Positions 1 to 42,997 are shown, counted from the stretch's first letter. The stretch is 48,809 bases of DNA from an uncultured bacterium (GCA_963844965.1 CAWJQC010000001.1:1-48809), one strand, 5' to 3'. Notes: generated by a model from the letters alone, not told the origin. Program-made: numbers and translations.

Positions 1-644
1 GTGAACTGCATCGTTCAGCTCTACGATCCTCAGAACGGCACGTCATACTATTCGCTTGCGAACGGCAGCAGCAGCGGTTCTATAACCGTTGGTGCGTCCA
101 CGTCCGCGACGTCCACTGCGACCAGTACATTCCCGGTAACCATCAACAGTTTGGCTGTCGCTACGACAACGGCGATTGCGAGCGGTACTACCGCAGCGGT
201 CATAGCTCGGACATCGCCGCCGCCATTAACGCGTCAACCACAGCTCTCGGCGTTACTGCGTCCGCATCAAACAACGTAATTACGTTGGCGCAAAATACGC
301 CGTCAACAAGCAACATCACCGTTACCGGTGGTGCAACGCTCGCTGGTCTGGCGATGACGTATGTGAACATCACTGGTGTTGCTGGAAGCTACCTGTCCTT
401 CAACCTTAACGGCTACACGGTCTCTGCCGGCACATCCAAGAGCTTCAACCTTCGTTTGAACTCAACCGGTGGTACTGTATCTGCTGGCAGCGGCGTCTCG
501 GTTACTTTAGCCGCGACGATCTCTTCCGCCAGCAACATCACCTGGACAGACGCCTTGGATAGCTCAGCTGCTTCTAACCTGAATATCCAGGCAAGCACTA
601 TTCCAGTGTCTATCCAGTCGGTTTCGTACGCGCAGGGAACGTAG
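1..644 (+). CDS. Ser/Thr-rich secreted/surface protein, C-terminal part (5' end outside window); ORFs 1..279 and 285..644 appear to be one gene joined by a frameshift near nt ~200 (frame of 285..644 stays open upstream to nt 3)
   Basis: Low-complexity S/T/A/G-rich translation typical of surface proteins; both reading frames open across the junction; followed by terminator. Confidence 0.4.
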   Translation, partial: ELHRSALRSSERHVILFACERQQQRFYNRWCVHVRDVHCDQYIPGNHQQFGCRYDNGDCERYYRSGHSSDIAAAINASTTALGVTASASNNVITLAQNTPSTSNITVTGGATLAGLAMTYVNITGVAGSYLSFNLNGYTVSAGTSKSFNLRLNSTGGTVSAGSGVSVTLAATISSASNITWTDALDSSAASNLNIQASTIPVSIQSVSYAQGT

Positions 645-691
645 TGATTGTCTGATCGCGAGCAAGTAACTTGAGATTATTTGCGAGCAGC

Positions 692-722
692 AAAACCCCC
701 GCCTTGCGCGGGGGCTTTGCGT
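692..722 (+). terminator. rho-independent terminator (CCCCCGC/GCGGGGG stem, then T-rich)
   Basis: AAAACCCCCGCCTTGCGCGGGGGCTTTGCGTTGC directly after the stop at 644. Confidence 0.6.
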
Positions 723-739
723 TGCTCGCCAACAATCCC

Positions 740-866
740 GTAATTCAATTGTAATTCGGTGGTAATAGTAATTAATAATTCAATGGTAATACGATTGTAA
801 TTCAGTGGTGATTCAATTCAGTGGTAATTCAGTTGTAATTCCATAGTAATTCAGTAGAATTGAGTA
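740..866. repeat. array of about 12 GTAATTC-type heptamers with 3-6 nt spacers, immediately upstream of the four-helix-bundle gene
   Basis: gtaattcaattgtaattcggtggtaat...gtaattcagtggtaattcagttgtaattcc read directly. Confidence 0.8.
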
Positions 867-1229
867 ATGAAACTCGACGATCTTGAAGTTTATAAACTGG
901 CCGGAGAAATTTCCGACGAGTCATGGTTGATTTACGAAAAGTTAAATTGGCGCGACAGGAAAATTATAGGAGATCAGTTTATCCGCGCCGTGGATTCTAT
1001 TGCCGCCAACATAGCTGAGGGCTTCGGCCGTTTTCATTACCTGGACAAAAATAAATTTAACTATAACGCACGCGGTTCGCTATTTGAATCAAAGCACTGG
1101 ACGAGTTCACTCTTTAAAAGGAATTTAATAACCAAGAAACAATTTGATTCCTTGGACCATAAACTTAATAATTTAGCCGTCAAACTAAACAACCTTATCG
1201 TTTCCACGCGGCGTCAATTGAGTAAATAA
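867..1229 (+). CDS. four-helix-bundle protein (TIGR02436-like; '23S rRNA intervening-sequence protein' family)
   Basis: 120 aa; motif IRAVDSIAANIAEGFGRFHYLDKNKFNYNARGSLFESKHW characteristic of this family. Confidence 0.75.
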   Translation: MKLDDLEVYKLAGEISDESWLIYEKLNWRDRKIIGDQFIRAVDSIAANIAEGFGRFHYLDKNKFNYNARGSLFESKHWTSSLFKRNLITKKQFDSLDHKLNNLAVKLNNLIVSTRRQLSK

Positions 1230-1292
1230 TTACCACAGAGTTACTATTACCATTGAATTACTACCGAATTACTACTGAATTACTTTATTACC
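1230..1292. repeat. inverse-orientation heptamer array (GAATTAC units), reverse complement of the 740-866 array
   Basis: ttaccattgaattactaccgaattactactgaattactttattacc; can pair with upstream array to form a long stem enclosing the ORF. Confidence 0.8.
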
Positions 1293-3623
1293 ATGTCCTC
1301 AAAGTCATTGCTTAGAATTATAAAAATTCTTATTTTCGTCGTTGTAATTGGAACGCCGTTTTTTTATGTAAAACAAACCGTTTTCCCCTTCACCATCTCC
1401 AAGATGGCTTTTTTTCAGTCGCTTGTGGAGTTTATATTTTTCCTTTGGCTTGCGCTCGTCCTCCCAAGTTTTGTCGGCAAAAATTTGGGAGGACGAGCGA
1501 TTTCCGACAAAAAATATCGCCCGCGCCGGACGCCGGCCCTTCTGGGTCTCGCGGCGTTTCTTGCCGTTTTGGTTTTCACGGCGGCTCTAGGCCTCGACCC
1601 TTGGCGCAGTTTCTGGTCAACATATGAGCGGACGTTCGGAGTTGTTACTTTTTTGCATTTAGGGGCACTGGCCCTTGTTCTTTCCGCGATTTGGTCGGAA
1701 ATTCCCTGGAAGAAACTTGCTTATTCTTCGATTGTGACCTGCGCGATCGTTGACATCATCGCCGCCTTGCAATTATGGAAGCCGGCCTTATTGCTCAATG
1801 AGGGTGCGATTAACAGAGCCGGCTCCACGTTTGATAATCCGTCGTTTCTGGCCGGTTACGTTTTGTTCCATGTTTTCCTTTGTCTCTATGTTCTATTTAC
1901 TTTGAAGAGAGGAGAGGATCTCCGAGCCGGTGGGCAGCGCTCGTCCAAGAATCTTTGGATAGGCATTGTTCTTTTTGTTATTCTCGTATTGAACGTCGTC
2001 ACCATTTTTATAACGCAGACGCGCGCAGCCATTTTGGCTTTGGTTGCCGGCTTTTTTGTTCTATTTTTGTTCTTTGCCTTTCGGCCGCCAGATAACGAAT
2101 GGCTGCCGGGTTTTTTGAAAAAAAAGTGGTTCTACGCCGCCGTCATCGCGGTCATCGTTTTGGGCGGCGCACTGTTTTGGTTCACGCGCGACAGCGCGGT
2201 TTGGGCGCAAGTTCCCGGACTCGGGAGATTCCGCAATATTTCCCTCACCGGCGGCGACACTTTGCCCAGAGTCATCGCCCTTAGCGCGGCTTGGCGCGGA
2301 TTTTTGGACAAGCCGTTCCTGGGTTGGGGATGGGAGAATTTCAATATTGTGTTCAATAAGTATTACGACCCGCGGTCTTTGGAGTTCAACTATGAAGAAA
2401 CGAGATTTGATAAGCCGCACAATTTTTTCATGGAATATTTGGTTGCCGGAGGCGTTCTCCTCGCGCTCGGATTTTTGGTTATGCTCGGCATTTTGATATA
2501 CGAGGCGCGGCGGCACAAAGAAAAACTTTTTTACCCGCTATTTTTGGCGGCGATTGTCGCCTACTTGGTCCAGAACCTGTTCCTTTTTGACACGCTCGGT
2601 CCGGCACTCATGTTTTTCGCGCTTTTCGGATACATGGACGGTTATTATGCCAAAAGCAGCGAGGAAAGGCCGGAAAAGGAAGCGCAAACACGGATACCGA
2701 CAAAGGTCAGCGGGCTTATGCTTGCGGTGTGCGCGCTTGTCGCTCTGGTTTTTGCGTATCAGTTTAATTTCCTGACCGTTGAGGCGTCTTATTATGAGTG
2801 GCGTGCTTTTAATGATTTTTTCGGAGGGAAACAGCAGAATGCCATAGAGGATTTCAAGACCACTTTGAGTATTTGGAGTCCGTATAGATGGAATTTCGGC
2901 AGGGATTTCGCCGCGAACGTTATAATGGCTTATTTTTACAATCAAGGCGCGGTGTCCGACAACGAGGCGCTTCTCGCTTTGAGCGCTATGGAAGAAGCGC
3001 GGGATGAGCATCCTCTTGATGCTTATAATCACTATGCGCTCGTTGACATGTACAATGAGGTTTCGGACATTGACATCGCAAAATACACGGCTTTAGCGGA
3101 GAAAGAAGCGGCAACGGCGCTCGCTTTGAGCCCGAACCGGCAGGAAGTTTATTTTTCTCTCGCGAAGACGAAACATATCGAGGGCGACGACAAGGCGGCA
3201 CTTGAACTCGCGAAGCGCGCCTTGGATTTGGACCCGAAGGTTCCCGACGCCCATTTCTACTACGGCGTGCTTCTGTTCTCGACTGGAGATCAAGCCGATG
3301 GCTATGCGGAAGTGAAGGAAGCGATCTCTTTGGGAAGAGAGTGGAAAAACTTTTACGAACCGAGAACGATTGCCGGATTTTTCGGCGATTTTGACCCTCC
3401 GAAACATTTGGATGAGGCTATAGACCTTTATAAAACGGCGCTTTCCATGCAACCTGACGATTTGGAAACGCAGATAAAACTCGGAGTTGCCTATTATTTC
3501 AAAAATGACTTTACCGACGCGCGCGATTACTTGAGTAAGGCGGCGACAAGATTCAACTTCAGAAGCAGTCCCGAGTTCGCCGAATTCAAGCCGATTCTGA
3601 ACCAGTTGGGAATAAATTATTAA
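1293..3623 (+). CDS. polytopic membrane protein, O-antigen ligase (Wzy_C)-like N-terminal domain plus C-terminal TPR repeats
   Basis: About 10 predicted TM helices, TQTRAAILALVAG ligase-like motif, C-terminal TPR-like helices (AYNHYALVDMYNE..., ALDLDPKVPDAHFYYGVLL...). Confidence 0.65.
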   Translation: MSSKSLLRIIKILIFVVVIGTPFFYVKQTVFPFTISKMAFFQSLVEFIFFLWLALVLPSFVGKNLGGRAISDKKYRPRRTPALLGLAAFLAVLVFTAALGLDPWRSFWSTYERTFGVVTFLHLGALALVLSAIWSEIPWKKLAYSSIVTCAIVDIIAALQLWKPALLLNEGAINRAGSTFDNPSFLAGYVLFHVFLCLYVLFTLKRGEDLRAGGQRSSKNLWIGIVLFVILVLNVVTIFITQTRAAILALVAGFFVLFLFFAFRPPDNEWLPGFLKKKWFYAAVIAVIVLGGALFWFTRDSAVWAQVPGLGRFRNISLTGGDTLPRVIALSAAWRGFLDKPFLGWGWENFNIVFNKYYDPRSLEFNYEETRFDKPHNFFMEYLVAGGVLLALGFLVMLGILIYEARRHKEKLFYPLFLAAIVAYLVQNLFLFDTLGPALMFFALFGYMDGYYAKSSEERPEKEAQTRIPTKVSGLMLAVCALVALVFAYQFNFLTVEASYYEWRAFNDFFGGKQQNAIEDFKTTLSIWSPYRWNFGRDFAANVIMAYFYNQGAVSDNEALLALSAMEEARDEHPLDAYNHYALVDMYNEVSDIDIAKYTALAEKEAATALALSPNRQEVYFSLAKTKHIEGDDKAALELAKRALDLDPKVPDAHFYYGVLLFSTGDQADGYAEVKEAISLGREWKNFYEPRTIAGFFGDFDPPKHLDEAIDLYKTALSMQPDDLETQIKLGVAYYFKNDFTDARDYLSKAATRFNFRSSPEFAEFKPILNQLGINY

Positions 3624-3781
3624 TCGATTAGCCGGCGGCTGATTGGGTGGTTTCGCCGGAGATTCCCGATTTTGCTATAATAAACATACTTGAAACCAAC
3701 AAAGGTCGACGCGACATAAAGCAAAGCGCGAAGCGCGAACGGCGGATCGATCCGCTTCACGATTTGCTGTAAGCAATTATT

Positions 3782-4057
3782 ATGACAAAAGCAGAATTAG
3801 TGGAGGCCGTGATGAAAGCGGCTGGCATTGAAACCAAGGTGGCCGCCGAGAGGTGCGTTGACACGGTTTTCGACACGATTGTGAAAACCATGAGCCGCGG
3901 CGAGGAAGTCGCCATAACGGGCTTCGGTACTTTTCGGGTTGCCAAGCTCGCCGCTCGCCAAGGAAGGAATCCAAAAACAGGCGAGACGATTCAGATCGCG
4001 GCTTCGGTAAAACCCAAATTCCGCGCCGGCAAGGTTCTGAAAGAAGCTGTTAAATAA
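3782..4057 (+). CDS. hup: HU family DNA-binding protein
   Basis: 91 aa, MTKAELVEAV...GFGTFRVAKLAARQGRNPKTGETIQI, a canonical HU/IHF fold sequence. Confidence 0.9.
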   Translation: MTKAELVEAVMKAAGIETKVAAERCVDTVFDTIVKTMSRGEEVAITGFGTFRVAKLAARQGRNPKTGETIQIAASVKPKFRAGKVLKEAVK

Positions 4058-4151
4058 GATGTTCCCCGGCTTGCGTTCGGCGTCTGCAGTTTCTCGCCTT
4101 TGGAGCACCGGCAAAAAGCAATTCCCCCGATCCAAGTCGGGGGAATTTGTC

Positions 4152-4427
4152 TAGAACCCATCTCAAAAATACTTTCAGGTCGCGTTGCGAGAGATTTTCT
4201 CGTATTCGCAAGGCTTGGCGAGGGAGCTGTGCTTGATGCACTGCGACCGAGCCGTAACGCAGCGGGACGAGAAAATCTCCGCAACCCTTCGGGATGCGGT
4301 AAATCGTGCGCAGCACCGTGTCGCTTCGGACTCGGAGTACCGCAGAGGGTACACCTTCGTCCTTACTCCTTGTTCTGCGCACGATTTGCCAGTATCGCGA
4401 CCGAAGGTATTTTCGAGATGGGTTCTA
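4152..4427. other. 276-nt non-coding element bounded by a 21-bp inverted repeat (TAGAACCCATCTCaAAAATAC / GTATTTTCGAGATGGGTTCTA), in a convergent intergenic region; candidate structured ncRNA or MITE
   Basis: Inverted repeat read directly (20/21 match); internal hairpins (cgagagattttctcg, gagaaaatctc); no convincing ORF. Confidence 0.3.
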
Positions 4428-5219
4428 AGATGATTTACTGATCATTCCTGAGATATCTAGGAGATTCTTGTAGGTTGAGGACAAAAAATCAAGCGAAGAT
4501 TTTATGTGATTAGAAGATTCATCCGGCGGGGCAAATGTGCCGAGATCAGTTTCGGCAGTTTCGTTTTCCTTGAGAGCGCTGCCGAAGTTGACTTGCGCCT
4601 CATTCCAAAGATTTTGTATTTCGTCGTTGTCCACTATCTTCAACAGCGCCATCGTCGCTGAAACTTGATTTATCCTCGTCTGGGCTGATTGGAACAACGC
4701 CTGATTGTTGGCCCAGATAATGAGATTGTTCGCGTTTTGGGCCGCCGGTTTGTAGTTTCCGTCACGCCACTCGCCGATAACTTTGGCGAAATCCTTGCTG
4801 CCTTGAAGCCCAAGATCGTTTATTTTTGATTTCTGGAGCGTCAAGTAATTCTCGGCATTATCAAGCTGGCTCATGAGTTGGCTTTCAAGATGCTGTATGG
4901 CGGGGTCGCTTACAGTTACGCCGCTCAAATCTGTTTTCACGCTAGTGACCTCTTCTATGGCGCAATCCATCGTTTCTCCAAGCAGTTCTTTTCTTACCGC
5001 GAGCTCCTTTTTCATTTCCGTGAGGTAGTCGAGAGAGGAATCGTTCTGAATGGCGGCAAGTTCGTCAAATTTATCTTGGCTCAATGTACATTGCTGAGGG
5101 GCGTCTGCGGCAAGAACGGGCTTGGAGATGATCGCCGCGAAGACCCAAAAAAACATGCCCATCGTTCCGATAATTTTCATGGGCATTTTTCTCGCGATGA
5201 TTTGCGGGAAAATTATCAT
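4425..5219 (-). CDS. secreted hypothetical protein (signal peptide, helical)
   Basis: N-terminal hydrophobic signal MKIIGTMGMFFWVFAAIISKPVLA; last gene of the sigma/anti-sigma operon (4-nt overlap with upstream gene). Confidence 0.5.
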   Translation of the reverse strand: MIIFPQIIARKMPMKIIGTMGMFFWVFAAIISKPVLAADAPQQCTLSQDKFDELAAIQNDSSLDYLTEMKKELAVRKELLGETMDCAIEEVTSVKTDLSGVTVSDPAIQHLESQLMSQLDNAENYLTLQKSKINDLGLQGSKDFAKVIGEWRDGNYKPAAQNANNLIIWANNQALFQSAQTRINQVSATMALLKIVDNDEIQNLWNEAQVNFGSALKENETAETDLGTFAPPDESSNHIKSSLDFLSSTYKNLLDISGMISKSS

Positions 5220-5686
5220 TCGGAAAGTTTTGAAAAAGCTTCGTCAACGGACAGCGAAGTTGAGGTCGCGGCATTGGTGGATGTGGCGTTTGCTGCTGTC
5301 GTAGCTGGAGTCGTTTTGTTGGCGGTTTGGCCGAGTGGCGGGGTGGACTCTGGGGCTTTTGCGCCGGCGGCGCTCACATAGTTCAGATTCATAAGTTGTA
5401 TCTGCATGTCAATGGCGGTGGCTTCGGCTTTGAGCCCAGCCGGGTCAAGGTTGGATATCCGGAGGGGGGTAGTGCCCTTCCAGGACGGGAAGCCGCCGAT
5501 TATAAGGAGTATCAAAATGCCGGCTATCGCGAAGGTTGCCCCAAGTTCAACATTTTTCAGGATCAGGTTCCAGACATTGAGTCTGGCTTCCCGCCTTGCG
5601 CTCAAAATCAAGCCGCGCGACTTTTCAGTGTAGCTTCTGTCCGGTTGGATGTTTTTAAATTTTTTAAGCGTATTTAACGGGTCCAT
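5216..5686 (-). CDS. putative membrane anti-sigma factor (single TM, short cytoplasmic N-terminus)
   Basis: Immediately downstream of the ECF sigma gene, single TM segment ATFAIAGILILLIIGG, S/T/A-rich C-terminus. Confidence 0.4.
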   Translation of the reverse strand: MDPLNTLKKFKNIQPDRSYTEKSRGLILSARREARLNVWNLILKNVELGATFAIAGILILLIIGGFPSWKGTTPLRISNLDPAGLKAEATAIDMQIQLMNLNYVSAAGAKAPESTPPLGQTANKTTPATTAANATSTNAATSTSLSVDEAFSKLSE

Positions 5687-5693
5687 TGAAATT

Positions 5694-6227
5694 TTAAACC
5701 AATATTTTTTTCAGTTCTTTTATTGCTCTGTGCTGCAAGAGTTTCACGGCGCCCTCGCTCTTTTCCAGCGCCGCCGCTGTTTCTTTGAGCGAGATGTCTT
5801 CTACGAATCGCATGATTATAATGTCCTGATATTCTGGTTTCAATCTGGAGACGGCAAGTCGCACTTTCTCCATCTCCATTTTCTCGCCGAGATCTATTTG
5901 CGCTGATGCCGGAGCCACGAAATACTTCGGGTCAACATTTTCCAGGCTCACTTCGCCCTTCTTCGTCCTGTAATAGTCAGCTACTTCGTTCCTCGCTATT
6001 TTATAGAGCCAGCTTGAGAAGGGGAAACCAAGGTTCTTGTAGGCCTCCACGTTCTTCCAGGCCGACATGAAAACCTCATGGGTCAGGTCCTCGGCTTCCT
6101 CACGACGGCCCACTTTAATCAGTACAAACCGGTATATCGCCGGTTGGTAGTAGTCATAAAGGGAGCCGAAAGCCGAGGCCTGCCCCTTGATGGCACTTTT
6201 AATTAACTTTTCTTCGCCATCTAACAT
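5694..6227 (-). CDS. RNA polymerase ECF-type sigma-70 factor
   Basis: Region 2 (YRFVLIKVGRREEAEDLTHEVF) and region 4 (ISLKETAAALEKSEGAVKLLQHRAIKELKK) motifs. Confidence 0.85.
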   Translation of the reverse strand: MLDGEEKLIKSAIKGQASAFGSLYDYYQPAIYRFVLIKVGRREEAEDLTHEVFMSAWKNVEAYKNLGFPFSSWLYKIARNEVADYYRTKKGEVSLENVDPKYFVAPASAQIDLGEKMEMEKVRLAVSRLKPEYQDIIIMRFVEDISLKETAAALEKSEGAVKLLQHRAIKELKKILV

Positions 6228-8822: not shown

Positions 8823-8850
8823 GTCCTGAGTTGTATTTTATTCCGCACGG

Positions 8851-8921
8851 AGCGGGATACCGGAATCGAACCGGCGCCATCACCTTGGCAAGGTGACGTA
8901 CTACCACTATACTAATCCCGC
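8851..8921 (-). tRNA. tRNA-Gly (anticodon GCC)
   Basis: Reverse complement GCGGGAT..GTATAGTGGTA..CACCT-TTGCCAA-AGGTG..GGTTCGATTCC..ATCCCGC-T; cloverleaf folds by hand; CCA not encoded. Confidence 0.8.
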
Positions 8922-8924
8922 GAA

Positions 8925-9040
8925 TATCCAGAATCTAGAAATTAGAAAGTAGAGAATAGAATAAAGAAAACCAAGATTGAATTAGTTGACTTTCACCTTC
9001 TACTTTCTAGATTCCATTTTCTATTTTCTTGCTCTTTTCG
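8925..9040. repeat. AT-rich palindromic intergenic element (TAGAAAGTAGA / TCTACTTTCTA; AAATAGAAAATAGAA / TTCTATTTTC family)
   Basis: ctagaaattagaaagtagag ... ccttctactttctagattccattttctattttc; related copy at 28441-28560. Confidence 0.45.
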
Positions 9041-9487
9041 TCAATAGTTCGGCGGCGGACCCGACGGACCGGTTATGCGCGGCGGACCGGTCGGACCCTT
9101 GAAACCGGGAGGGACCCATTTTGTTGACGTTCCTGAATTGGTTGGCGATGACGGGATCGATGTTTCGGAACCGGAAGCCGAAGAAGAGGAGTCGGTTCCT
9201 GTTTTCGTTACGCCGGCATTACCCGCTGGCGTGGTGCTCGTCGCGAATTTCGGGATCAATTGGTAGAAAGAGTTTAGTATTTGAAGACGCGCGCTTTCGG
9301 AAAGAACGAAAATTGTTATGAGACAAACCGCTACGACCAAAGAAATTGTAAGAGCGAAAGACTTCACGGAAATGGAGTCGCCAATTAATGATTGCGGAAT
9401 TTTATTTTTTTCTGCGAAAGCCACGATTTTTTCCAGGGAGGCGCTTGCCGTGGCATATATAACAAGAATAACAAAAAAACCGCCCAA
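9041..9487 (-). CDS. hypothetical membrane protein with short collagen-like C-terminus
   Basis: 148 aa, two TM segments, C-terminus GFKGPTGPPRITGPSGPP. Confidence 0.45.
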   Translation of the reverse strand: MGGFFVILVIYATASASLEKIVAFAEKNKIPQSLIGDSISVKSFALTISLVVAVCLITIFVLSESARLQILNSFYQLIPKFATSTTPAGNAGVTKTGTDSSSSASGSETSIPSSPTNSGTSTKWVPPGFKGPTGPPRITGPSGPPPNY

Positions 9488-9515
9488 GCGGTAGCTTCAC
9501 CGAACGGTATTTTTC

Positions 9516-9524
9516 TGTTATAAT
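9516..9524 (+). promoter_or_regulatory. extended -10 promoter element TGTTATAAT about 15 nt upstream of tRNA-Arg
   Basis: TGnTATAAT consensus read directly. Confidence 0.4.
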
Positions 9525-9538
9525 GACTGCGTGCTCAG

Positions 9539-9610
9539 GCCCTCGTCGTTCAACGGATAGGACGCAAGATTGCGGATCTTGTAATCGAGGTTCGATTCCT
9601 CGCGGGGGCA
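9539..9610 (+). tRNA. tRNA-Arg with genomic anticodon GCG (unusual; ACG expected)
   Basis: GCCCTCG-TC-GTTC-AACGGATA-GGAC-G-CAAGA-TTGCGGA-TCTTG-TAAT-CGAGG-TTCGATT-CCTCG-CGGGGGC-A; 7-bp acceptor (one G.U), discriminator A, C35; CCA not encoded. Confidence 0.7.
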
Positions 9611-9629
9611 CGGTGTTATTATTAACATT

Positions 9630-10657: not shown

Positions 10658-11935
10658 TCAAGGTACCGTCGCCTGTACCTCGTTCGAGTCCGCACTCTGT
10701 GTAACATCATTCGAAGCTACGGCTGTAACCACATAGTAGTACGTTTGCCCTGCCTGCACAATCGCGTCGCAGTACGTGGTTCCGTTTACAGGCGAGGAAT
10801 TCAATGGCATTGTGCTCTCTCCGCCCGAGGCAGTGCCACGGTAAACATCGTACCCAACTACGCCGGGAGTCGTGCTGGCGGTCCAGGATAGAATCACGTC
10901 GTGCGTTCCTGCGCCGGAGAGACTCACGGTCTGCGGGCTGCCGCTGGCATTGTCTGTGAGACTGAGCGTGGCTGCACGCTGTCCCACGGCGGAAGGCGTG
11001 AAGGCGATTCCGATCGTACAGTTGCCGCCCGCCGCAACCGAACCGCCGCAGGTGTCTGCTATCTCAGCAAAGTCGCCGGCATTGGTGCCCGTGATTGCGA
11101 GGCTGGTAATACTCAGGGCCGCGTTGCCAGTGTTGGTCAGGGTGACGGTCTGAACCGAGCTCGTAATGTCGACGGGTTGGTTGCCGAAGGCCAGGCTGGC
11201 GGAGGAGAAACTGGCCACAGGCGCGGTGCCAGTCCCAGATAGGCTCACTGTCTGTGGGCTATTGCTGGCGTTGTCAGCAATGCTCAGCGAAGCCGCACGG
11301 CTGCCACTGGCCGATGGTGTGAACATGACGCTGATCGTGCAGTTCCCTCCTGCCCCGACCGAACTCCCGCAATTGTTGCTCTGCGAAAAGTCACTGGCGT
11401 TCGTGCCCGTCAACCCCAGACTGGTGATAGTCAATGCGGCATTGCCGCTGTTAATCAGGGTGACGGTCTGAGCCGAACTGGTTGTGCCCACAGACTGGCT
11501 TGCAAAGGCTAAACTGGTTGGAGAAAGACTGGCTACGGCTGCATTGCCAGTCCCGTTTCCGGACAACGAAATCGCCAGCGCGTTCGTCGCCGTACTGTTG
11601 ATAGTCAAGGTTCCGGTTACGGCACCGCCTGCAGTTGGCGCGAAGGTTACTACGAATGTCGTCGTTGCTTTCGCAGCCAGCGCTTTGGGAAGTGTTATGC
11701 CGCTTACGCTGAATGTGGTGTTGCCGGTTATCGGCAACGACTGGATGGTAACGCTGACGCTCCCTGAATTCGTTATTGTGAACGACTTTTGGCCTTTGCT
11801 TCCCAAGTTGACATTGCCGAAATTGTTGCTCGTCGGCGTAACCGCGATTGTCCCGGCATTGCCTAGCAATCTTGTCGGAAACAAAACGGCCAGAAACAAT
11901 ACCAAAAGAATGGCAATAGTCCCTGCTTTTCTCAT
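10658..11935 (-). CDS. secreted surface protein: three choice-of-anchor-D-like beta-sandwich repeats plus C-terminal fibronectin type III domain
   Basis: Signal peptide; repeats FGNVNLGSKGQKSFTITNSG / LAFASQSVGTTSSAQTVTLINSGNAALTITS.. / ..GGNCTISVMFTP; C-terminus YDVYRGTASGG...YYYVVTAV is Fn3-like. Confidence 0.6.
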   Translation of the reverse strand: MRKAGTIAILLVLFLAVLFPTRLLGNAGTIAVTPTSNNFGNVNLGSKGQKSFTITNSGSVSVTIQSLPITGNTTFSVSGITLPKALAAKATTTFVVTFAPTAGGAVTGTLTINSTATNALAISLSGNGTGNAAVASLSPTSLAFASQSVGTTSSAQTVTLINSGNAALTITSLGLTGTNASDFSQSNNCGSSVGAGGNCTISVMFTPSASGSRAASLSIADNASNSPQTVSLSGTGTAPVASFSSASLAFGNQPVDITSSVQTVTLTNTGNAALSITSLAITGTNAGDFAEIADTCGGSVAAGGNCTIGIAFTPSAVGQRAATLSLTDNASGSPQTVSLSGAGTHDVILSWTASTTPGVVGYDVYRGTASGGESTMPLNSSPVNGTTYCDAIVQAGQTYYYVVTAVASNDVTQSADSNEVQATVP

Positions 11936-12073
11936 CTAATCCGACCCCCTTTCAAAGAGGAAATATAAGGCTTTGTGAAGAAAACTGCCCCCAGTGTACT
12001 CTAAATTAAGATATATGTCAAGTGCTATGGGCACTTGACTTTTTTAAACAGTATGTTATTATATAGGAATCTT

Positions 12074-15000
12074 ATGACTTATCAACACATTTACAAAGCC
12101 ATTTTGTCAAGGTTCACCGCTACACTATTCCTTGCGGCGCTTGCTGTGTTTTTGGGTTTTATCCCTGTTCACGCCGCGATTTACAATGCGAGCGGCCTCC
12201 TTGGACACATAGACCAAAGCGGAAATCCCATATACACGTCCGGCGGAATGAACAACGGACCGAACGCCAAGGGTTTGTATGTTCCGGCCGATACGGCACT
12301 CGATGCGGTAAATCACCGGCTTTTCGTGGTGGACACCAACAACGCCCGCGTTCTGGTTTTTTCTCTGACCTCTGCGGATGGCATTTCCTCCGTAACTCCT
12401 TCTTATGTGATAGGGCAAAGCGATTTCGTATCGGCTGACGCGGCGACCGTGTCGCAAAACCGGCTAGCGTATCCCGTAGGCCTCGCCTATGATTCCGCGA
12501 ACAGCCGGCTTTTCGTTTCCGATCAGGTTAATAACCGCGTCCTGGTGTTCAATGTCGCTCCGGGAACGATCGCGAACGGCGAGAACGCCTCTTATGTTCT
12601 TGGTCAAGGAAATTTTTCTTCTAACTCTGCCAACACGACCCAAAATGGTCTTAGTACTCCTTACGGACTTGCCTATGACGCCACAACGACGCGCCTTTTC
12701 GTTTCGGACCAGACGAACAACCGCGTTCTGGTGTTCAATGTGGCGGTTTCTTCCATGTCCAACGGAATGAACGCATCGTATGTCCTGGGGCAAGCTAATT
12801 TTACATCATCAGCCGCAGCCACTAAGAGCAGCGGCTTGAATACGCCGTATGGTGTCATGGTGGACGGCAATAGCCGCTTATTCGTCGCCGATAGCGGGAA
12901 CAACAGAGTTTTATATTATAGCGTTTCATCCATTACGAACGGCAAAGCGGCAACGAGGGTTTTGGGACAAGGAACTAGTTTTACCACATCGGCCGCGGCC
13001 ACGACACAATCTGGTCTTTCCGCTCCGCAAGGCCTGGCTTACGATTCCAAGTCCAACCGTCTTTTCGTCGCGGATGACGGCAACAACCGCATAATGGTGT
13101 TCTCCGTGGGAACGGGGAATTTCACGAGCGGGATGAATGCGTCATATGTTCTGGGACAGACTTCTTTTACTGCGGCCGCCGCCAATATTTCACAGAACGG
13201 CTTGAGCGCTCCATATGGTCTTGCCTATAGTTCCGCGAACAGCCGGCTTTTCGTCGCGGACCAAACGAACAGTCGCATTATGCTTTTTAACGCGGCTACC
13301 TCAACCATCTCTAACGGTGAAAACGCTTCCGGTTTGTTTGGCCACACGGACCAAAACGGGAATCCATTGTATACCATAGGCGAACCGAACAACGGCCCGA
13401 GCGCTCAGGGGTTTAATTATCCTTACGGAACCACGCTTGATGCCGTGAATCATCGTCTTTTTGTTTCCGATCAGACGAACAACCGCGTCCTGGTTTTTGC
13501 TTTGGATTCAAACAATAATATTTCAGCCACCACCGCCTCCTATGTTCTGGGTCAGAGCAGCTTCACTGGTTCGTCCCCGTCAACTTCACAGGGCGGTCTC
13601 AGCGCTCCACATGGTTTGGCATATGACGCGGCGAATAACCGTCTGTTCGTGTCCGATACCAGCAACAACCGCGTCCTGGTGTTCAATGTCGCTCCGGGAA
13701 CGATCGCGAACGGCGAGAACGCTTCGGTGGTTTTGGGACAATCTTCTTACACGACTTCGGATCCCGCCGTCACCCAGAACGGCCTCAATGCTCCCTATGG
13801 TCTTGTCTACGATCCGTCGAACGGCCGCCTCTTCGTAGCGGATAACAGTAACCAGCGCGTAATGGTCTTCAATACCATCGCGAACGGAGCGAACGCCGCT
13901 TTTGAGCTCGGTCAGAGCGACTTTGTGACATCCAATTCCGCCGCAAGCCAAAGCGGGCTCTCCGGCCCCGCCGACCTTGCTTATGACTCCTCAACGAGCC
14001 GCCTTTTCGTGGCCGATCAGATAAATAACCGCATCATGATTTTTAATGTTTCAACATCCACGATGGCGAACGGCAAAAATGCCGCGCACGTTTTGGGTCA
14101 GGCTGATTTCACGGCATCCAATGTCAACACAACCCAAGGGGGATTGAGCGGCCCTTACGGACTTGCGTACGACGCGACGAGAGGACAGCTCTACGTCGCG
14201 GACGTCAACAACAGCCGCATTCTCGTGTTCAACGCGATAGTTTCCGCGCTGGCCGACGGAGAGAATGCGTCAAACGTTTTGGGAACAGCGGATTTTGTCT
14301 CGGTTGGAGGCGGCACGTCGCAGAGTTCGGTCAATTCTGACAATTCGCTCGCAGATGATACCGCGAGTAACAGACTTTTTGCGGTAGACGGCCCCGATAA
14401 TCGCGTCACAGTCTTTTCATTGGTGAGGGTCAATGCTGCGTCCCTGCCCGGCGGCACGGTCGGGGCAGCTTATTCTGCGACAATCACGGCTTCGCAGTCG
14501 CAGGGAACGCTGAGCTTTGCAATCGCGAGCGGCAGTCTGCCGCCGGGACTTTCTCTGAACGCTTCTACGGGCGCGATATCGGGAGCGCCGACGGTCGCGA
14601 CAACGTCCGTCTTTGTGGTTGAGGCCGACGACGCATTCTCCACAGGCTCGTTCTTTGACCGCGCGACGTTCTCCATTACTGTTTCCGGGGGCGACACCAC
14701 TCCTCCTTCCGTCCCCACAGGACTCATGGCTACCGGAACGACCACTTCCACCATTTCCTTGTCCTGGACCGCTTCTACCGATTCCGGTGGCAGCGGACTT
14801 GCGGGATACAAGATATACAGGGACGGCACGCAGGTGGGAACCTCTACGGCTCCAAGCGCGACCTTCACCGACACCGCCCTTACAGCGTCCACGACCTACG
14901 CATATACGGTCAGTGCCTATGACAACGCCGGAAACGTTTCCGCGCAGTCATCGGCGATAAACGCCACGACCCAGTCTCTTTCCGACACGACGCCTCCCTC

Positions 15001-16621
15001 CGTACCGTCAGGACTTGCTGTTTCAACGACCACGTTGAGTTCGGTGTCGCTCACTTGGACCGCCTCTACGGACAATGTCGGTGTCACGGGATACGAGATC
15101 TACCGCAACGGCACGCAGACCGGAACTTCCACCTCGACCTCTTTCACAGATACCGGTCTTACGGCCTCAACTACATATTCCTATGCCGTCTCTGCCTATG
15201 ACGCAGCCGGCAACAACTCGGCAACCTCAACCTCTGTGAGCGCGACAACTTCGGCAGCGAGTAGCGGCGGTGACAGCGGCGGAGGTAGTGCTTCAACAAC
15301 TGTCACACTTTCTGCGATTACTGGGCCAACCGTCACGGTTGGAGACACTGCCGCCTTCACTGCAAACGCAACGGACTCTGATGCCAGCGGCACCGTTTCA
15401 TACGGCCTTACCGGCGCTCCTTCCGGTGCAACAATTGACGCATCATCTGGTGCGTTCTCGTGGAACACAACCGGAGTCACACCTGGCACATACACCTTCT
15501 CAGTGACTGCAACCGGCAGCACCGGTGGCTCTGATAGTAAGGACGTCTCAATTACGGTAAATGCGGCACCTGTGCCCGCGACGAGCACATTGAACGTTAC
15601 AGTGTTGGTTGACAATTCGCAGGGCGGCTTGGCAACCCCCTCCGACTTCACGGTCAGCGTTTATGCAAGCAATCCGAGCACATCCACCTTCCCGGGAAAC
15701 GCTTCAGGCACTACTGTGACCGTTGATGAGAATACTACCTACAGCGTGAATATTTCTTCGCTGAATGATTATTCTTCCGCTAATAACGGTAGTTGCGCTG
15801 GCACCACCGCGCCCGCCGGCAATTCAGTAAACTGTTCATTCACGGAAACATTCTTGCCCCTTATCTCACAACAGGGTTCGTCTAACCCGACCACTGATTC
15901 CATCACCGTAACCTGGACCACGGACCATCCGGCGACGAGCCGCGTGATCTACGACACCGTGTCGCATCCAACTTTGGGAGCGGCGCCGAACTACGGATAC
16001 GCCTATTCCACGGATGAGGACTCCACGCTTCTTACGAGCCACAGCGTGACTGTCTCCGGTCTTGCGGCTGGCACGACTTACTACTTCCGTGCTGTTTCCC
16101 ATGGCTCTCCCGAAACTGTAAGCGATGAATTCACCGGAACGACAACTTCGCCGGCGAGTAGCGGCGTGGGTAGTGCTACGGTCAGCGGCGGTGGCGGAGG
16201 GGGTGGAGGCGGCGGTGGTGGCGGAGGAGGAGGTGGTGGCGGAGGATATATTTCTCCTACCGAGCCAACCCAATCTCCGGCGTCAACTCAAAACGCCGCA
16301 GTGGACCCGAATGCCACACTCCGGTCTTTGCTGGAAAAGCTGCAAATCTTACTCGCACAACTGAACTCTAAATTGAAGTCGCAATTTACTCGCGATCTTA
16401 CCATAGGGTCGTCGGGAGATACCGTTCGCGTTCTTCAGACGTTCTTGAACATCAACGGTTATCCCATCGCCAGCACCGGTATCGGCTCTCCAGGCAACGA
16501 ATCCGCCTATTTCGGAGTGAAGACCGCCGCCGCTCTAGCTAAGTTCCAGGAGGTACACGGCCTTCCCCCAACCGGATACTTTGGCTCACTCACGAGGCAG
16601 ATAATAATGGGAATAAAGTAA
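12074..16621 (+). CDS. giant cell-surface protein: about 14 NHL repeats, Ig-like and Fn3 domains, 22-residue poly-Gly linker, C-terminal peptidoglycan-binding (PG_binding_1) domain. ORF track start 12035; ATG 12074 preferred because it follows a TGTTATTAT -10-like element and gives a signal peptide
   Basis: Repeated NNRVLVF(N/S) NHL motif; SLSWTASTD..GYKIYRDG Fn3; GDTVRVLQTFLNINGYPIASTG...LAKFQEVHGLPPTGYFG PG-binding. Confidence 0.7.
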   Translation: MTYQHIYKAILSRFTATLFLAALAVFLGFIPVHAAIYNASGLLGHIDQSGNPIYTSGGMNNGPNAKGLYVPADTALDAVNHRLFVVDTNNARVLVFSLTSADGISSVTPSYVIGQSDFVSADAATVSQNRLAYPVGLAYDSANSRLFVSDQVNNRVLVFNVAPGTIANGENASYVLGQGNFSSNSANTTQNGLSTPYGLAYDATTTRLFVSDQTNNRVLVFNVAVSSMSNGMNASYVLGQANFTSSAAATKSSGLNTPYGVMVDGNSRLFVADSGNNRVLYYSVSSITNGKAATRVLGQGTSFTTSAAATTQSGLSAPQGLAYDSKSNRLFVADDGNNRIMVFSVGTGNFTSGMNASYVLGQTSFTAAAANISQNGLSAPYGLAYSSANSRLFVADQTNSRIMLFNAATSTISNGENASGLFGHTDQNGNPLYTIGEPNNGPSAQGFNYPYGTTLDAVNHRLFVSDQTNNRVLVFALDSNNNISATTASYVLGQSSFTGSSPSTSQGGLSAPHGLAYDAANNRLFVSDTSNNRVLVFNVAPGTIANGENASVVLGQSSYTTSDPAVTQNGLNAPYGLVYDPSNGRLFVADNSNQRVMVFNTIANGANAAFELGQSDFVTSNSAASQSGLSGPADLAYDSSTSRLFVADQINNRIMIFNVSTSTMANGKNAAHVLGQADFTASNVNTTQGGLSGPYGLAYDATRGQLYVADVNNSRILVFNAIVSALADGENASNVLGTADFVSVGGGTSQSSVNSDNSLADDTASNRLFAVDGPDNRVTVFSLVRVNAASLPGGTVGAAYSATITASQSQGTLSFAIASGSLPPGLSLNASTGAISGAPTVATTSVFVVEADDAFSTGSFFDRATFSITVSGGDTTPPSVPTGLMATGTTTSTISLSWTASTDSGGSGLAGYKIYRDGTQVGTSTAPSATFTDTALTASTTYAYTVSAYDNAGNVSAQSSAINATTQSLSDTTPPSVPSGLAVSTTTLSSVSLTWTASTDNVGVTGYEIYRNGTQTGTSTSTSFTDTGLTASTTYSYAVSAYDAAGNNSATSTSVSATTSAASSGGDSGGGSASTTVTLSAITGPTVTVGDTAAFTANATDSDASGTVSYGLTGAPSGATIDASSGAFSWNTTGVTPGTYTFSVTATGSTGGSDSKDVSITVNAAPVPATSTLNVTVLVDNSQGGLATPSDFTVSVYASNPSTSTFPGNASGTTVTVDENTTYSVNISSLNDYSSANNGSCAGTTAPAGNSVNCSFTETFLPLISQQGSSNPTTDSITVTWTTDHPATSRVIYDTVSHPTLGAAPNYGYAYSTDEDSTLLTSHSVTVSGLAAGTTYYFRAVSHGSPETVSDEFTGTTTSPASSGVGSATVSGGGGGGGGGGGGGGGGGGGGYISPTEPTQSPASTQNAAVDPNATLRSLLEKLQILLAQLNSKLKSQFTRDLTIGSSGDTVRVLQTFLNINGYPIASTGIGSPGNESAYFGVKTAAALAKFQEVHGLPPTGYFGSLTRQIIMGIK

Positions 16622-16789: not shown

Positions 16790-17260
16790 TTAGAAACCGA
16801 TGAGTTCCTCCAGTGTTTCCAGGAGGGAACGTTCGTGCTTTACCTGCGGGAGGATAGTTTGCAGTATTTTCTGGATTTCCGCCGTTCGCTCCTTTGGCAT
16901 TTTGATCTTGAGCGGAGTTTTGAGGCGCGCCCTGAATTGGAAATAAGTATTTGGCCAATCGGTTTGGAGATATTCGTCCACGCTGAAACTTTCCATTTCG
17001 CTCCAGGCGTAAAACTTATGGCCGCCGATATCAAACCCCCTTTCATTTATGGTGAATTCAACGAGCGGCGGTTCGCGATTTGCCCAGACGAGCACGAGAA
17101 TTTCCGCGACGACTATCAGGAATCCGAAAAGGAAATTTTTTTGCCAGACGGAAATCCCAACGATTACGGCCGCAATGATGATGGAAATCCAGTACCAGGA
17201 AACGCCTTTCGGCCGGTATTCAAATTCCGGCGCGCGCCATTTCAGTTCAAATGGATTCAT
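16790..17260 (-). CDS. hypothetical membrane protein (two TM helices)
   Basis: 156 aa, WYWISIIIAAVIVGISVW and FLFGFLIVVAEILVLVW hydrophobic helices. Confidence 0.5.
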   Translation of the reverse strand: MNPFELKWRAPEFEYRPKGVSWYWISIIIAAVIVGISVWQKNFLFGFLIVVAEILVLVWANREPPLVEFTINERGFDIGGHKFYAWSEMESFSVDEYLQTDWPNTYFQFRARLKTPLKIKMPKERTAEIQKILQTILPQVKHERSLLETLEELIGF

Positions 17261-29990: not shown

Positions 29991-32385
29991 GTGAAACATA
30001 GAAATGTATGTGGCGCTATTGCCGTTTTTGTGTTGCTTATGACGGGTTGCGGTAGTGAAGGTGGTAATAATCTTCCGCCAGCAAATCCGTTGCCGACAAT
30101 TTCCGTTTCCGCGAATTCGGTTGGCTTTTCCGCCGTTCAGGGCGGAGCAAATCCCGCGGACCAGGAGTTGGCCATTTCTAACTCCGGCGCTTCGGGCTCC
30201 ACGCTGAGCTATTCTGTGTCCAAGACGCAGAATTGGCTTACGCTCGGCGGTTCTGCGAGCGGCAGTTCTTGCCTCCGGCGGGTCCGCGAGCGTTTCGCTG
30301 GACGTGAATATTTCCGGCCTCACGGTCGGAACCTACAACGATACATTGACGATTTCCGCTGCCGGCGCGACGAACACGCCGCAGACGGCCGCGGTAAAAC
30401 TTGTCGTAACACCGCCCACGATTGATTCAGTCACCATTTCGCCGACGAGCGTAACGCTTCCGGCTGGCGGCACGCAGCAGTTCACGGATAACGTCAAAGG
30501 AACCGGTAGTTTCAATCCTGCCGTGAATTGGACAACGTCTGCGGCCTGCGGCAAGATTTCGGATTCCGGCCTCTACACGGCCGCAATGAACGCCCAGGTA
30601 TGCGCGGTGACCGTTACCAGTCAAGCCGACAATACGAAATCGGCTTCGGCTATGGTGACGATAACTTCGCTGCCCCCGACCATATCGGTCGCGCCAGGCA
30701 CGTTCACATTCTCGTCCGTCCAGGGCGGAGCGAACCCTGCGAGCCAGACGCTTACCGTATCAAATTCCGGAGCCTCCGGTTCGGTTCTGACTTACTCGGT
30801 TTCTAAAACGCAGCCATGGCTTATACTCGGCGGCTCTGCGAGCGGCAGTCTTGCCGCCAGCGGGTCCGCGAACGTTTCGCTGGATGTGAATATTTCCGGC
30901 CTTACAGCCGGAACTTACACCGATACACTGACAATTTCCGCTGCCGGCGCGACGAACACGCCGCAAATCGTGACGGTAACGCTCACTATAGCCGTGCCGC
31001 CTGATCCGACGATTTCAATGCCGCCTACCGCGACGGTGCAATACGGTTCAACCTGGCAATTCGATATCACAGCCAACGGCACCCCGGCCTGTTCCGTAAC
31101 TTCTGGTCCCGGCTCGGTGTCGGTATCTGCGGACGGCACTGTTGCGACATATAGTGTGCCTTTGCCGGGCACGGCTGTGGCCGCGATCTCGGCTTGGTCG
31201 GCGGCGCTCATCTGCACCGTGACGAATTCTGTCGGCAAGACCGCGACCGCGACAGCAACCGTTGCGCTCCAATATGACACGCCGGTTATCTCCTCATTTT
31301 CCACGGTCGGCATTATGTGTCAGGCGGAGTGTCTGATAACCGTGGTCGTAACCGGCTCCGGATTCTACGTCGGCGGCACGCTTTACGAGGATTCAACGCC
31401 CATGTCGCTTGTGAGCGCGAGCACGAACGTAACCGGCCAACCCAACATGCTTCCGATATCGGAGAACGACAGGGTCGCATTCATAATGATTTTTGACACG
31501 CCGCATTACGACCCACACCGGATAAAGTTTTCGGCCGCGAGTCCTAACGACGGGCACGGCGGCGGAACTTCAAATACCGTTTATCTGGGATTCTACGGCA
31601 ACCAGAATACGGTAGCTTTAAGCATTGGCAACCAGAACACGACAGCTCCCACCCCGGCGGAAGTTTTCCAAGCCTATCAGGCTCAATCGGTAATCTACAA
31701 ATTTCTCCTAAGTGATGGAACAAGCGACGGTAATTTCCTACAAGCTGCTCACGGAATATCGGTGGACGACAAAAGCGGAAATCTATTGCTTACCCCGCCG
31801 TGGGGCATAATGGAAATAGCACCCAGCGGGCAGCAAGTCGGCGGGGCGTGGATAAATCTCTATTCCATAGCCGTGGCGGCGAAAGGCGGGTATGGATGCG
31901 CAGCGCAGCCATATGACGGTTCGCTGACCTCACTTGATCTGTCGCAGTTGCCGCGTTTGAGTCCCGTTATCATGGCTATCGGAAACGAGCCGTGGAATGT
32001 GGCGATGACGAAACTCGGCGGCGAGTTTGCCTGCGTCGCGTTCAATGCCGGCGACTTGCAGCTCTCCGTCGTTAAAGTTCCAGAAACGCAACTTTGGAAT
32101 TTCACGACGCTTGTCGGTTTGACGCCGCTCGGTGATCTGCAGTCGCCTCCGGACGGCGGTTGGCAACTCGCTGTTTTTGACGTCAGCACGACCGTCAAGA
32201 TTATCGCCGTCCTGTCACAGCACGACAAGTTGGTTGTCTTCAAGCAGTTGCAGTTGGACGAAAATACCGGACTTGTCGCGATTAACGATCTTGCTCAAAC
32301 CCCGATCAGCTGGGTTATAAATTCGGATCAGCAGCTAACTGGCGCGCCGGTATTGCTCGGGATTCCGTTCAGGATCGCGTTTTGA
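29991..32385 (+). CDS. lipoprotein with BACON-like / Big_2 / BACON-like N-terminal modules and large C-terminal domain; interrupted by a 1-nt insertion at about 30266 (ORFs 29991..30425 and 30304..32385 are one gene)
   Basis: Lipobox LLMTGC; GTG start with GGGAGG RBS; the second tandem module (30700-31000) is a near-identical DNA copy of the first but has GGCAGTCTTGCC where the first has GGCAGTTCTTGCC. Confidence 0.55.

Positions 32386-39542: not shown

Positions 39543-42997
<3,455 letters not shown>

Follow-up and report, generated by a model that had tools for sequence, protein, structure and literature searches.

Patescibacteria attach to other cells and, beyond type IV pili, little is known about the surface proteins that they carry. 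What such a protein may look like, how it is held at the cell and whether it works together with the pili are questions raised by a stretch of DNA of 48,809 nucleotides from an uncultured bacterium (GCA_963844965.1, CAWJQC010000001.1:1-48809; the whole stretch is called the window below), in which a very large gene on the plus strand (12074-16621) lies beside a type IV pilus cluster. The gene and its domain classes are real: the 1515-aa product combines two six-bladed NHL propellers, a stalk of immunoglobulin (Ig)-like modules, a poly-Gly run and a C-terminal PG_binding_1 domain. From the list of open reading frames (ORFs) and the Pfam matches, it is read as a secreted, wall-anchored twin NHL-propeller protein, which is probably exported by the Sec pathway and held non-covalently on the cell wall, with the twin propeller serving as a binding or adhesion head.

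The cell from which the window derives would be a monoderm member of the Patescibacteria, similar to Paceibacteria or Parcubacteria. Its PilB is at most 74% identical to the PilB proteins of Patescibacteria metagenome-assembled genomes labelled Paceibacteria, Parcubacteria, Liptonbacteria and Wolfebacteria. The pilus genes scanned in the window comprise PilM, a probable PilN (with no Pfam match), PilO, PilB, PilT, PilC, PilD and pilins, and the lack of a secretin among them is consistent with a monoderm envelope.

Gene and Domain Architecture

The reading frame extends from an ATG at 12074 to the stop codon that ends at 16621, and an in-frame TTG farther upstream, at 12035, is also a possible start. 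A Pfam scan of the full-length protein returned, all above the respective cut-offs, NHL with 156 bits (cut-off 20; eight stretches), He_PIG with 74 bits, fn3 with 69 bits and PG_binding_1 with 46.8 bits (cut-off 23). The C-terminal half was scanned again with Pfam in segments, from which the domain borders and E values given below were taken, and an NCBIfam scan of the 1515-aa protein added nothing specific.

A preliminary description of this DNA had proposed a propeller carried on a long stalk of beta-sandwich modules and fixed to the wall non-covalently, and this picture agrees with the domain map and with a conserved, apparently cleavable signal peptide; the NHL and PG_binding_1 assignments hold in the profile searches, and the predicted structure of the propellers backs the former. 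Several details had to be revised. The NHL repeats, put at about 14, are 12 blades arranged as two sets of six; the two fn3 domains stand, the single putative Ig domain has become two He_PIG domains, and a weak SpaA_2-like module and an fn3-like Pur_ac_phosph_N module are found besides; the linker is indeed a pure glycine run, but of 20 residues instead of 22.

Export and Wall Anchoring

A Sec signal peptide is predicted at aa 1-34 (12074-12175, plus strand), where K8 and R13 are found together with a hydrophobic core of ~19 residues, followed by the junction V-H-A/A. The junction is conserved: among the 27 homologues whose signal peptide is immediately succeeded by the first blade, 21 have Ala at position -1 and 21 have Ala, Val or Ser at position -3. 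An A-x-A site kept precisely at the start of the propeller suggests that the signal peptide is cleavable.

No LPXTG motif, SLH domain, C-terminal transmembrane segment or prepilin N_methyl motif was detected in the protein by Pfam, NCBIfam and inspection of the sequence. The C-terminus (...GSLTRQIIMGIK) falls within the peptidoglycan-binding domain (PGBD), with neither an LPXTG motif nor a transmembrane segment. Because the signal peptide is conserved and predicted to be cleavable and the other anchors are absent, PG_binding_1 would be the sole remaining anchor. This domain (aa 1447-1510; 16412-16603, plus strand) reaches 52.8 bits (E 4.5e-14) in the segment scan, and the match spans profile positions 1-56 of 57.

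In monoderm bacteria, PGB1 (PF01471) is known as a domain that binds to the wall non-covalently (for a review see PMC5817068), and the window protein resembles the non-covalent surface proteins of this group (PGB1, SH3b, LysM) in joining a Sec-exported passenger to a terminal wall-binding module without a sortase signal. It differs in this respect from LPXTG adhesins/MSCRAMMs and from SLH S-layer proteins, of which it has neither the motif nor the domain. Classical PF01471 domains are mostly found on wall hydrolases (PMC10936435); unlike these enzymes, the window protein and its nearest relatives are giant multi-module proteins that terminate in PF01471, often with poly-Gly before it.

The extent to which this tail is shared was followed with the 124-aa segment comprising helix and PG_binding_1 as query. 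A word-indexed search gave five matches, a number that reflects its limited sensitivity, and was replaced by an exhaustive phmmer search, which matched 10,784 proteins; the 150 nearest representatives of these were used for a census of the tail and 38 long ones for a Pfam census. In 130 of the 150 nearest relatives the PGBD lies within 30 aa of the C-terminus, and a Gly run of at least five residues precedes it immediately in 47 (maximum 11). At least 800 aa are reached by 65 of the 150 and at least 2000 aa by 18, and NHL blades are present in only two. The passengers on the 38 long proteins include fn3/Pur_ac_phosph_N, Laminin_G_3, Flg_new_2, Big_7, beta-helix, other propellers, polysaccharide lyase, deacetylase and GDSL lipase. 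Judged from these sequences, the polyG-PG_binding_1 tail is a generic C-terminal cassette with interchangeable heads and stalk modules, and it seems to be the general means by which this clade hangs large proteins on the wall.

As a separate observation, four distinct large proteins, each with PG_binding_1 at its end, are encoded within 23 kb on a metagenomic contig (L084, 3123-22917); they have PKD/TIG, NHL, DUF2341 with LamG and an unknown passenger, respectively, and pentose-phosphate and glycolysis genes are interleaved.

The census also bears on the opposite orientation of the protein, in which the N-terminal hydrophobic segment would stay in the membrane and the distal PGBD would grip the peptidoglycan of a host bacterium, as the grappling hook of an epibiont. 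Patescibacteria are typically epibionts, PGBD proteins have been proposed for host attachment (PMC10936435) and the hydrophobic core of ~19 residues is long, so that this arrangement has something to recommend it; it is nevertheless improbable. The A-x-A motif at the junction of signal peptide and propeller, present in 21/27 homologues, speaks against a retained membrane segment, and a PGBD at the extreme C-terminus of 130/150 relatives with varied heads is the pattern of a generic anchor. Moreover, methanogenic archaea are devoid of murein, and for a parasite of methanogens the binding of a PGBD to the bacterium's own wall is therefore the simpler reading. According to Kuroda et al. (PMC10936435), extracellular PGBD proteins are highly expressed in Paceibacteria that parasitise methanogens; with such hosts the own wall becomes the more plausible target.

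The Twin NHL Propeller

The head consists of NHL propeller 1 (aa 35-420; 12176-13333, plus strand) and NHL propeller 2 (aa 421-805; 13334-14488, plus strand), each with six blades. A motif scan with regular expressions, a hidden Markov model (HMM) built from the blades and an AlphaFold2 model agree on a total of 12 blades of ~61 aa each, and the blade HMM finds exactly 12 both in the window protein and in 5/6 homologues examined. The AlphaFold2 model of the propellers, calculated with an alignment of 17 sequences, has a mean pLDDT of 90.3 and a pTM of 0.87 and contains 12 four-stranded blades. In the DSSP assignment, an additional N-terminal strand lies ahead of each six-blade set and the fourth strand is missing after the final blade of each set. 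Since such a strand pattern fits closure, the model is compatible with two velcro-closed rings of six blades, as read from the order of strands and not from the coordinates. Aligned in register, the two propellers are 52% identical, and the mean pairwise identity of the blades is 45%; over ~770 residues the propellers contain no Cys, no Trp and six His.

When a single propeller was compared by Foldseek, the best fold matches were the Thin NHL structures 6d69/6xg7 (TM-score 0.84-0.86, rmsd 2.5 Å). A phmmer search against the PDB placed the Pizza designer propellers on top (E 1e-22) and, below them, SOQ1, Thin, NHLRC2, PknD (1rwi, E 2e-9) and TRIM71. Highly symmetric six-bladed NHL propellers are known from the Mycobacterium tuberculosis PknD sensor (PDB 1RWI/1RWL) and from the Pizza designs, which are derived from the PknD NHL domain. 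In PknD the propeller is located on the outer side of the cytoplasmic membrane. Whereas PknD has one propeller, a transmembrane helix and a cytoplasmic Ser/Thr kinase, the window protein has two propellers, with blades of ~61 aa and a long D-to-A loop, and lacks a transmembrane segment, and no kinase or HATPase domain was found in it by Pfam. The eukaryotic NHL domains of Drosophila Thin, TRIM71 and NHLRC2, which are intracellular and bind RNA or proteins, are similar in fold only. Teneurin and the RHS toxins are also different, because the window protein shares with them only a TEN_NHL match of 35.7 bits over the propeller, and no RHS repeats were found by Pfam.

With regard to function, the conserved columns of the blades are those of the NHL structural consensus and recur in all 12 blades, and no blade-specific His/Cys/acidic cluster or catalytic pattern was seen in the propellers. 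With propellers that are symmetric and display the structural consensus only, the head would most likely be a ligand- or partner-binding module, involved in adhesion to or recognition of a host cell, a polymer or a surface, and not an enzyme.

Some matches do point to catalysis, namely those with Arylesterase in Pfam (PF01731, 98 bits) and with Lactonase and SGL among the precomputed matches, a weak PDB match to PAL (3fvz) and the NCBI name 'beta-propeller fold lactonase family protein' found among the homologues. They would make of the protein a wall-tethered enzyme, whose lactonase-, arylesterase- or PAL-like propellers act on host or environmental substrates. The Arylesterase match, however, covers only profile positions 41-84 and recurs with each blade, and it is for this reason regarded as a similarity at the level of the blade. 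The uniformity of the conserved columns in all 12 blades and the presence of only six His in 770 residues likewise speak against catalysis, the best relatives in the PDB are non-catalytic NHL propellers, and some homologues combine the twin propeller with a histidine kinase or an RHS toxin, which suggests binding or sensing. A catalytic head thus appears unlikely.

Stalk, Linker and Proposed Mechanism

The region between the head and the wall anchor contains six beta-sandwich modules, all encoded on the plus strand. Directly after propeller 2, as in the homologues, there is a first He_PIG Ig-like domain (aa 797-871; 14462-14686; E 1.2e-11), followed by two fn3 domains (aa 881-962; 14714-14959; E 1.4e-9, and aa 977-1056; 15002-15241; E 1.8e-10) and by a second, He_PIG/PKD-like Ig domain (aa 1076-1163; 15299-15562; E 1e-14). 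A probable prealbumin-like SpaA_2 beta-sandwich comes next (aa 1171-1249; 15584-15820), with a weak match of E 3.8e-4 and 21.4 bits against a cut-off of 25; the only two Cys of the whole protein, at positions 1241 and 1254, are listed with this module. The last one is an fn3-like Pur_ac_phosph_N module (aa 1271-1357; 15884-16144; E 6.4e-11), which is also present in 15/38 other PGBD-anchored proteins.

The stalk is continued by the linker of 20 Gly (aa 1372-1391; 16187-16246, plus strand), in which GGC, GGT, GGA and GGG codons are intermixed and the frame is intact. The mixed use of all four Gly codons speaks against slippage and against an error of assembly as the origin of the run. This run is the longest seen, the maximum among 270 relatives being 11. 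Between linker and anchor, an amphipathic heptad helix, possibly a short coiled coil (aa ~1405-1443; 16286-16402, plus strand), has six Leu at a/d heptad positions; it is helical in a low-confidence AlphaFold2 model, and similar helices are found in several homologues. It may be speculated that it is an oligomerisation device. For PG_binding_1, in which a three-helix bundle would be expected, the single-sequence AlphaFold2 model shows helices at aa 1412-1513, with a pLDDT of only 45-64.

From these elements the following mechanism can be proposed. Signal peptidase I would remove residues 1-34, and the C-terminal PG_binding_1 would attach the protein to the peptidoglycan of the cell itself by non-covalent binding, as the known role of the family implies. 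The leucine-heptad helix might, more speculatively, pair or trimerise chains and in this way increase avidity, and the 20-Gly run would provide a thin flexible tether. A beta-sandwich module is about 3.5-4 nm long, and the six modules would form a stalk estimated at ~20-25 nm, at the distal end of which the two six-bladed NHL propellers, packed rigidly against each other, would be exposed as a head.

Two known proteins offer a functional analogy. EsrA of oral Actinobacteria has a Sec signal, 14 Ig-like domains, a terminal WD40 propeller and a signalling cluster (PMC13622651), and PilX2 of the Saccharibacteria TM7x is a minor pilin with an RCC1 propeller that is involved in host binding (PMC11623550). 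Like the window protein as proposed here, both expose a terminal propeller at the surface, on a filament or a pilus, for cell sensing or binding; unlike them, it has propellers of the NHL type and stands in neither a signalling cluster nor a pilin context.

A number of points weigh against this proposal. Cleavage of the signal peptide, binding to peptidoglycan and a ligand of the propellers are all deduced, and the envelope type is taken from the clade. The PGBD may have as its target the peptidoglycan of the cell itself or that of a host. The name 'lactonase family' given by NCBI to some homologues, together with the Arylesterase match, leaves room for an enzymatic head. Finally, the single-sequence AlphaFold2 model of the C-terminal 696 aa has a pLDDT of 46 and serves for secondary structure only.

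The same components could in principle also build a structural envelope layer, in which the protein would be abundant, bound to the wall and arranged through its twin propellers in an S-layer-like lattice. In Paceibacteria, the genes of PGBD proteins belong to those with the highest expression (PMC10936435), the two propellers pack rigidly (pTM 0.87) and several paralogues per genome are possible, P0008 and P0012 being encoded on contigs of equal length; a long flexible stalk with a 20-Gly tether is, however, unexpected in a lattice, and the family is highly mosaic and variable, which makes such a role very unlikely. The wall-anchored protein with a binding head remains the preferred reading.

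Distribution of the NHL-PGBD Family

The homologue search yielded 5104 proteins, and all those for which the source gives an organism belong to Patescibacteria. NHL and PF01471 are found together in at least 23 of the best 120 homologues. The shared layout consists of a signal peptide, 2 x 6 blades, He_PIG, variable modules and one or two copies of the PGBD at the C-terminus; a linker rich in Gly is frequent among the homologues, and in some of them a helix precedes the PGBD. The closest in plan are the Patescibacteria proteins P0055 (GCA_964414455.1), P0085 (GCA_034680565.1) and P0056, the last of which is named 'peptidoglycan-binding protein [Patescibacteria group bacterium]' by NCBI. They share with the window protein the A-x-A signal peptide, the two sets of six blades, the He_PIG domain after propeller 2 and the C-terminal PG_binding_1, and the identity of the propellers to those of the Patescibacteria NHL-PGBD homologues is 45-54%. 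The window protein is set apart from these homologues by five additional beta-sandwich modules, which lengthen its stalk, and by the longest Gly run. The architecture had at first been described as unusual, a view that the frequency of the NHL-PF01471 combination, the recurrence of 12 blades and the wide distribution of polyG-PGBD tails do not sustain.

In other homologues the twin-propeller unit is joined to histidine kinases (HATPase_c), to RHS toxins (P0083 and P0119, with RHS repeats) or to SH3b, and these fusions suggest that it is a general extracellular binding or sensing module. Database proteins cover at most 66% of the window protein, and a metagenome scan for close relatives gave a best identity of 33% and no orthologue; the mosaic itself is therefore new, while its parts and its plan are common. 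It belongs, as one mosaic among others, to a large paralogous family of Patescibacteria, which is widespread and experimentally uncharacterised. A literature search combining NHL with Patescibacteria or Candidate Phyla Radiation (CPR) retrieved no relevant paper. The gene offers a clean example, with a good structural model, of a very large family for which this search found no description. It is not exceptional in the clade, and the recurrent polyG-PG_binding_1 cassette and the variable slot in which the gene lies are the more interesting leads.

Relation to the Type IV Pilus Cluster

The genomic context was compared with that of 80 PilB-anchored loci of related genomes, 40 of which have the conserved cluster and at least 3 kb of upstream sequence. 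The divergent order of ComFC and PilM-PilN-PilO-PilB-PilT-PilC is kept in 60/80 loci. In the window, the conserved block mem156-ComFC/PilM begins with the gene of a predicted 156-aa membrane protein (mem156; 16790-17260, minus strand, identified by tblastn), which adjoins ComFC in 35/60 loci with 32-64% identity (tblastn) and is a possible component of the competence or pilus system; only a faint match to DUF5673 (E 0.007) was obtained for it. The NHL gene lies outside this block, is convergent to it and ends 0.17 kb from it. The pilins of the window match N_methyl in Pfam, whereas the NHL protein does not; in this, and in its place outside the pilus block, it differs from type IV pilins and minor pilins, including propeller-bearing proteins such as PilX2 and PilY1.

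Directly upstream of the pilus block, none of the 40 loci has an NHL gene; the single blade match in these upstream sequences is a two-blade fragment at a distance of ~6 kb, where the sequence of L048 is cut off. Conversely, no pilus genes were found within 10 kb on any of the six NHL-PGBD homologue contigs, on which the surroundings consist of ribosomal, sugar-metabolism or defence genes. In view of a slot devoid of NHL genes in 40 loci and of six homologues with no pilus genes nearby, the link to the pilus is unsupported.

The borders of the slot suggest another origin for this vicinity. On the right the slot is bounded by mem156 and on the left by tRNA-Arg(gcg) (9539-9611, plus strand), and it encloses the HAD, choice-of-anchor D and NHL genes. 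In relatives, tRNA-Arg(gcg) is on the minus strand and directly upstream of mem156 in 18/20 cases, with tRNA-Gly(gcc) 0.3-3.9 kb farther out. The window and L005 both have tRNA-Arg in the inverted orientation and separated from mem156 by 5-7 kb, an arrangement that suggests a variable or recombinogenic slot. Rfam matches in the window are limited to three tRNAs. Together, tRNA-Gly(gcc), tRNA-Arg(gcg), mem156 and ComFC form a neighbourhood that is conserved in the relatives (window 8849-9611 and 16790-17260; L003-L072).

Non-homologous surface proteins with wall anchors occupy the slot in three further loci. L005 (1808-5128) encodes a protein with five Big_7 domains and a C-terminal SH3_3, L015 (2-4045) one with three Flg_new, three cadherin-like domains, a beta-helix and a PGBD, and L020 (4741-5664) an apparently 5'-truncated Ig-polyG-helix-PGBD remnant beside a truncated GT2 gene. 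The Ig domain of this remnant is 77% identical to aa 1076-1163 of the window protein. The remaining 37 loci have ordinary genes in the slot. An occupancy of 4/41 is, by a rough estimate that was not computed, about what chance would give in genomes rich in such genes. The position of the NHL gene beside the type IV pilus cluster more probably reflects insertion into a tRNA-flanked variable slot than membership of a conserved functional unit.

The preliminary description had combined the NHL protein, its choice-of-anchor D neighbour and the adjacent pilus genes into a single attachment apparatus, a highly improbable arrangement in spite of the short distance to the mem156-ComFC/PilM block, of the propeller-bearing minor pilin that mediates host binding in TM7x (PMC11623550) and of the wall-anchored proteins or remnant in the slots of L005, L015 and L020, given that the slot has no NHL gene in 40/40 relatives, that 6/6 NHL-PGBD homologues stand in unrelated contexts, that the choice-of-anchor D gene is absent from 82 loci, that the prepilin motif is missing and that the slot is tRNA-flanked, variable and occupied roughly at the level of chance.

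A broader hypothesis, which joins the slot and the tail, is offered here only as an unlikely one. The interval from tRNA-Gly/tRNA-Arg to mem156-ComFC and the type IV pilus genes would be a hot spot of Paceibacteria in which head cassettes are swapped; the protein encoded in the slot would evolve fast and help to determine the range of hosts or substrates, acting alongside the pilus, and the polyG-(helix)-PG_binding_1 tail would be an undescribed general display system of Patescibacteria. If this were true, the tail would do for these bacteria what LPXTG or SLH anchoring does in Firmicutes.

Some further observations concern this region. L003 is the locus whose PilB is closest to that of the window, and its slot (1-5800) contains several apparently unrelated ORFs, including one for a 449-aa protein; by eye, they are reminiscent of a mobile or defence island (Vsr-like endonuclease, serine-recombinase-like and nucleotidyltransferase-like). 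An insertion or intein of ~0.9 kb in the pilB gene of relatives was considered, as matches extend over ~2.5 kb instead of 1.64 kb in about half of L003-L082, and was rejected as an artefact in which PilB is joined to its adjacent paralogue PilT. The tblastn matches of PilT begin at ~11735 in the loci with long PilB matches, and in those with short matches other DNA lies between pilB and pilT. Downstream of the minor pilins, the window has three large genes, at 30304-32385 (693 aa, weak BACON_2), 34958-39430 (1490 aa, no Pfam match) and 39543-40700 (385 aa, Laminin_G_3), which are better candidates for pilus-associated adhesins than the NHL gene.

Neighbouring Genes and Other Features

Divergent to the NHL gene, a gene on the minus strand (10658-11935) encodes a protein in which a probable signal peptide is combined with three choice-of-anchor D/ASH-HYDIN Ig-like domains (NF012200, E 1.8e-64; Cep192_D4, ASH and HYDIN Ig in Pfam). 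It had been described as a second beta-sandwich surface protein, and its beta-sandwich nature is borne out by these three domains, its hydrophobic leader being read as the signal peptide. There is also a weak fn3-like match at its C-terminus (E 0.03, 14.9 bits, cut-off 25). No anchor was detected in this protein, and a tblastn search found the choice-of-anchor D gene in none of 82 related loci.

Between the two divergent genes, a consensus scan revealed a perfect palindrome with 10-bp arms, GTCAAGTGC-TATGG-GCACTTGAC (12017-12039). Each arm supplies a TTGAC -35-like hexamer, and promoter-like sites are directed outward on both strands (12035-12062 on the plus strand and 12021-11993 on the minus strand; consensus scan). 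The palindrome may serve as an operator common to both genes, or may be no more than a hairpin acting in both directions.

Two ideas on the NHL gene itself were abandoned. N-glycosylation was dropped, as the 31 NxS/T sequons correspond to the 29.4 +/- 4.5 expected from the composition and are not enriched. The DNA repeats were ruled out as a sign of recent duplication or of an assembly artefact; they are coding repeats, 60-80% identical to one another. The G+C content is 0.52-0.57 over the gene against 0.47-0.50 in the flanks, a rise that is probably better explained by the amino-acid composition than by a foreign origin. G+C rises in the same way over other large genes rich in Gly, Ala, Ser and Thr, at 29-32 kb and 35-39 kb of the window.

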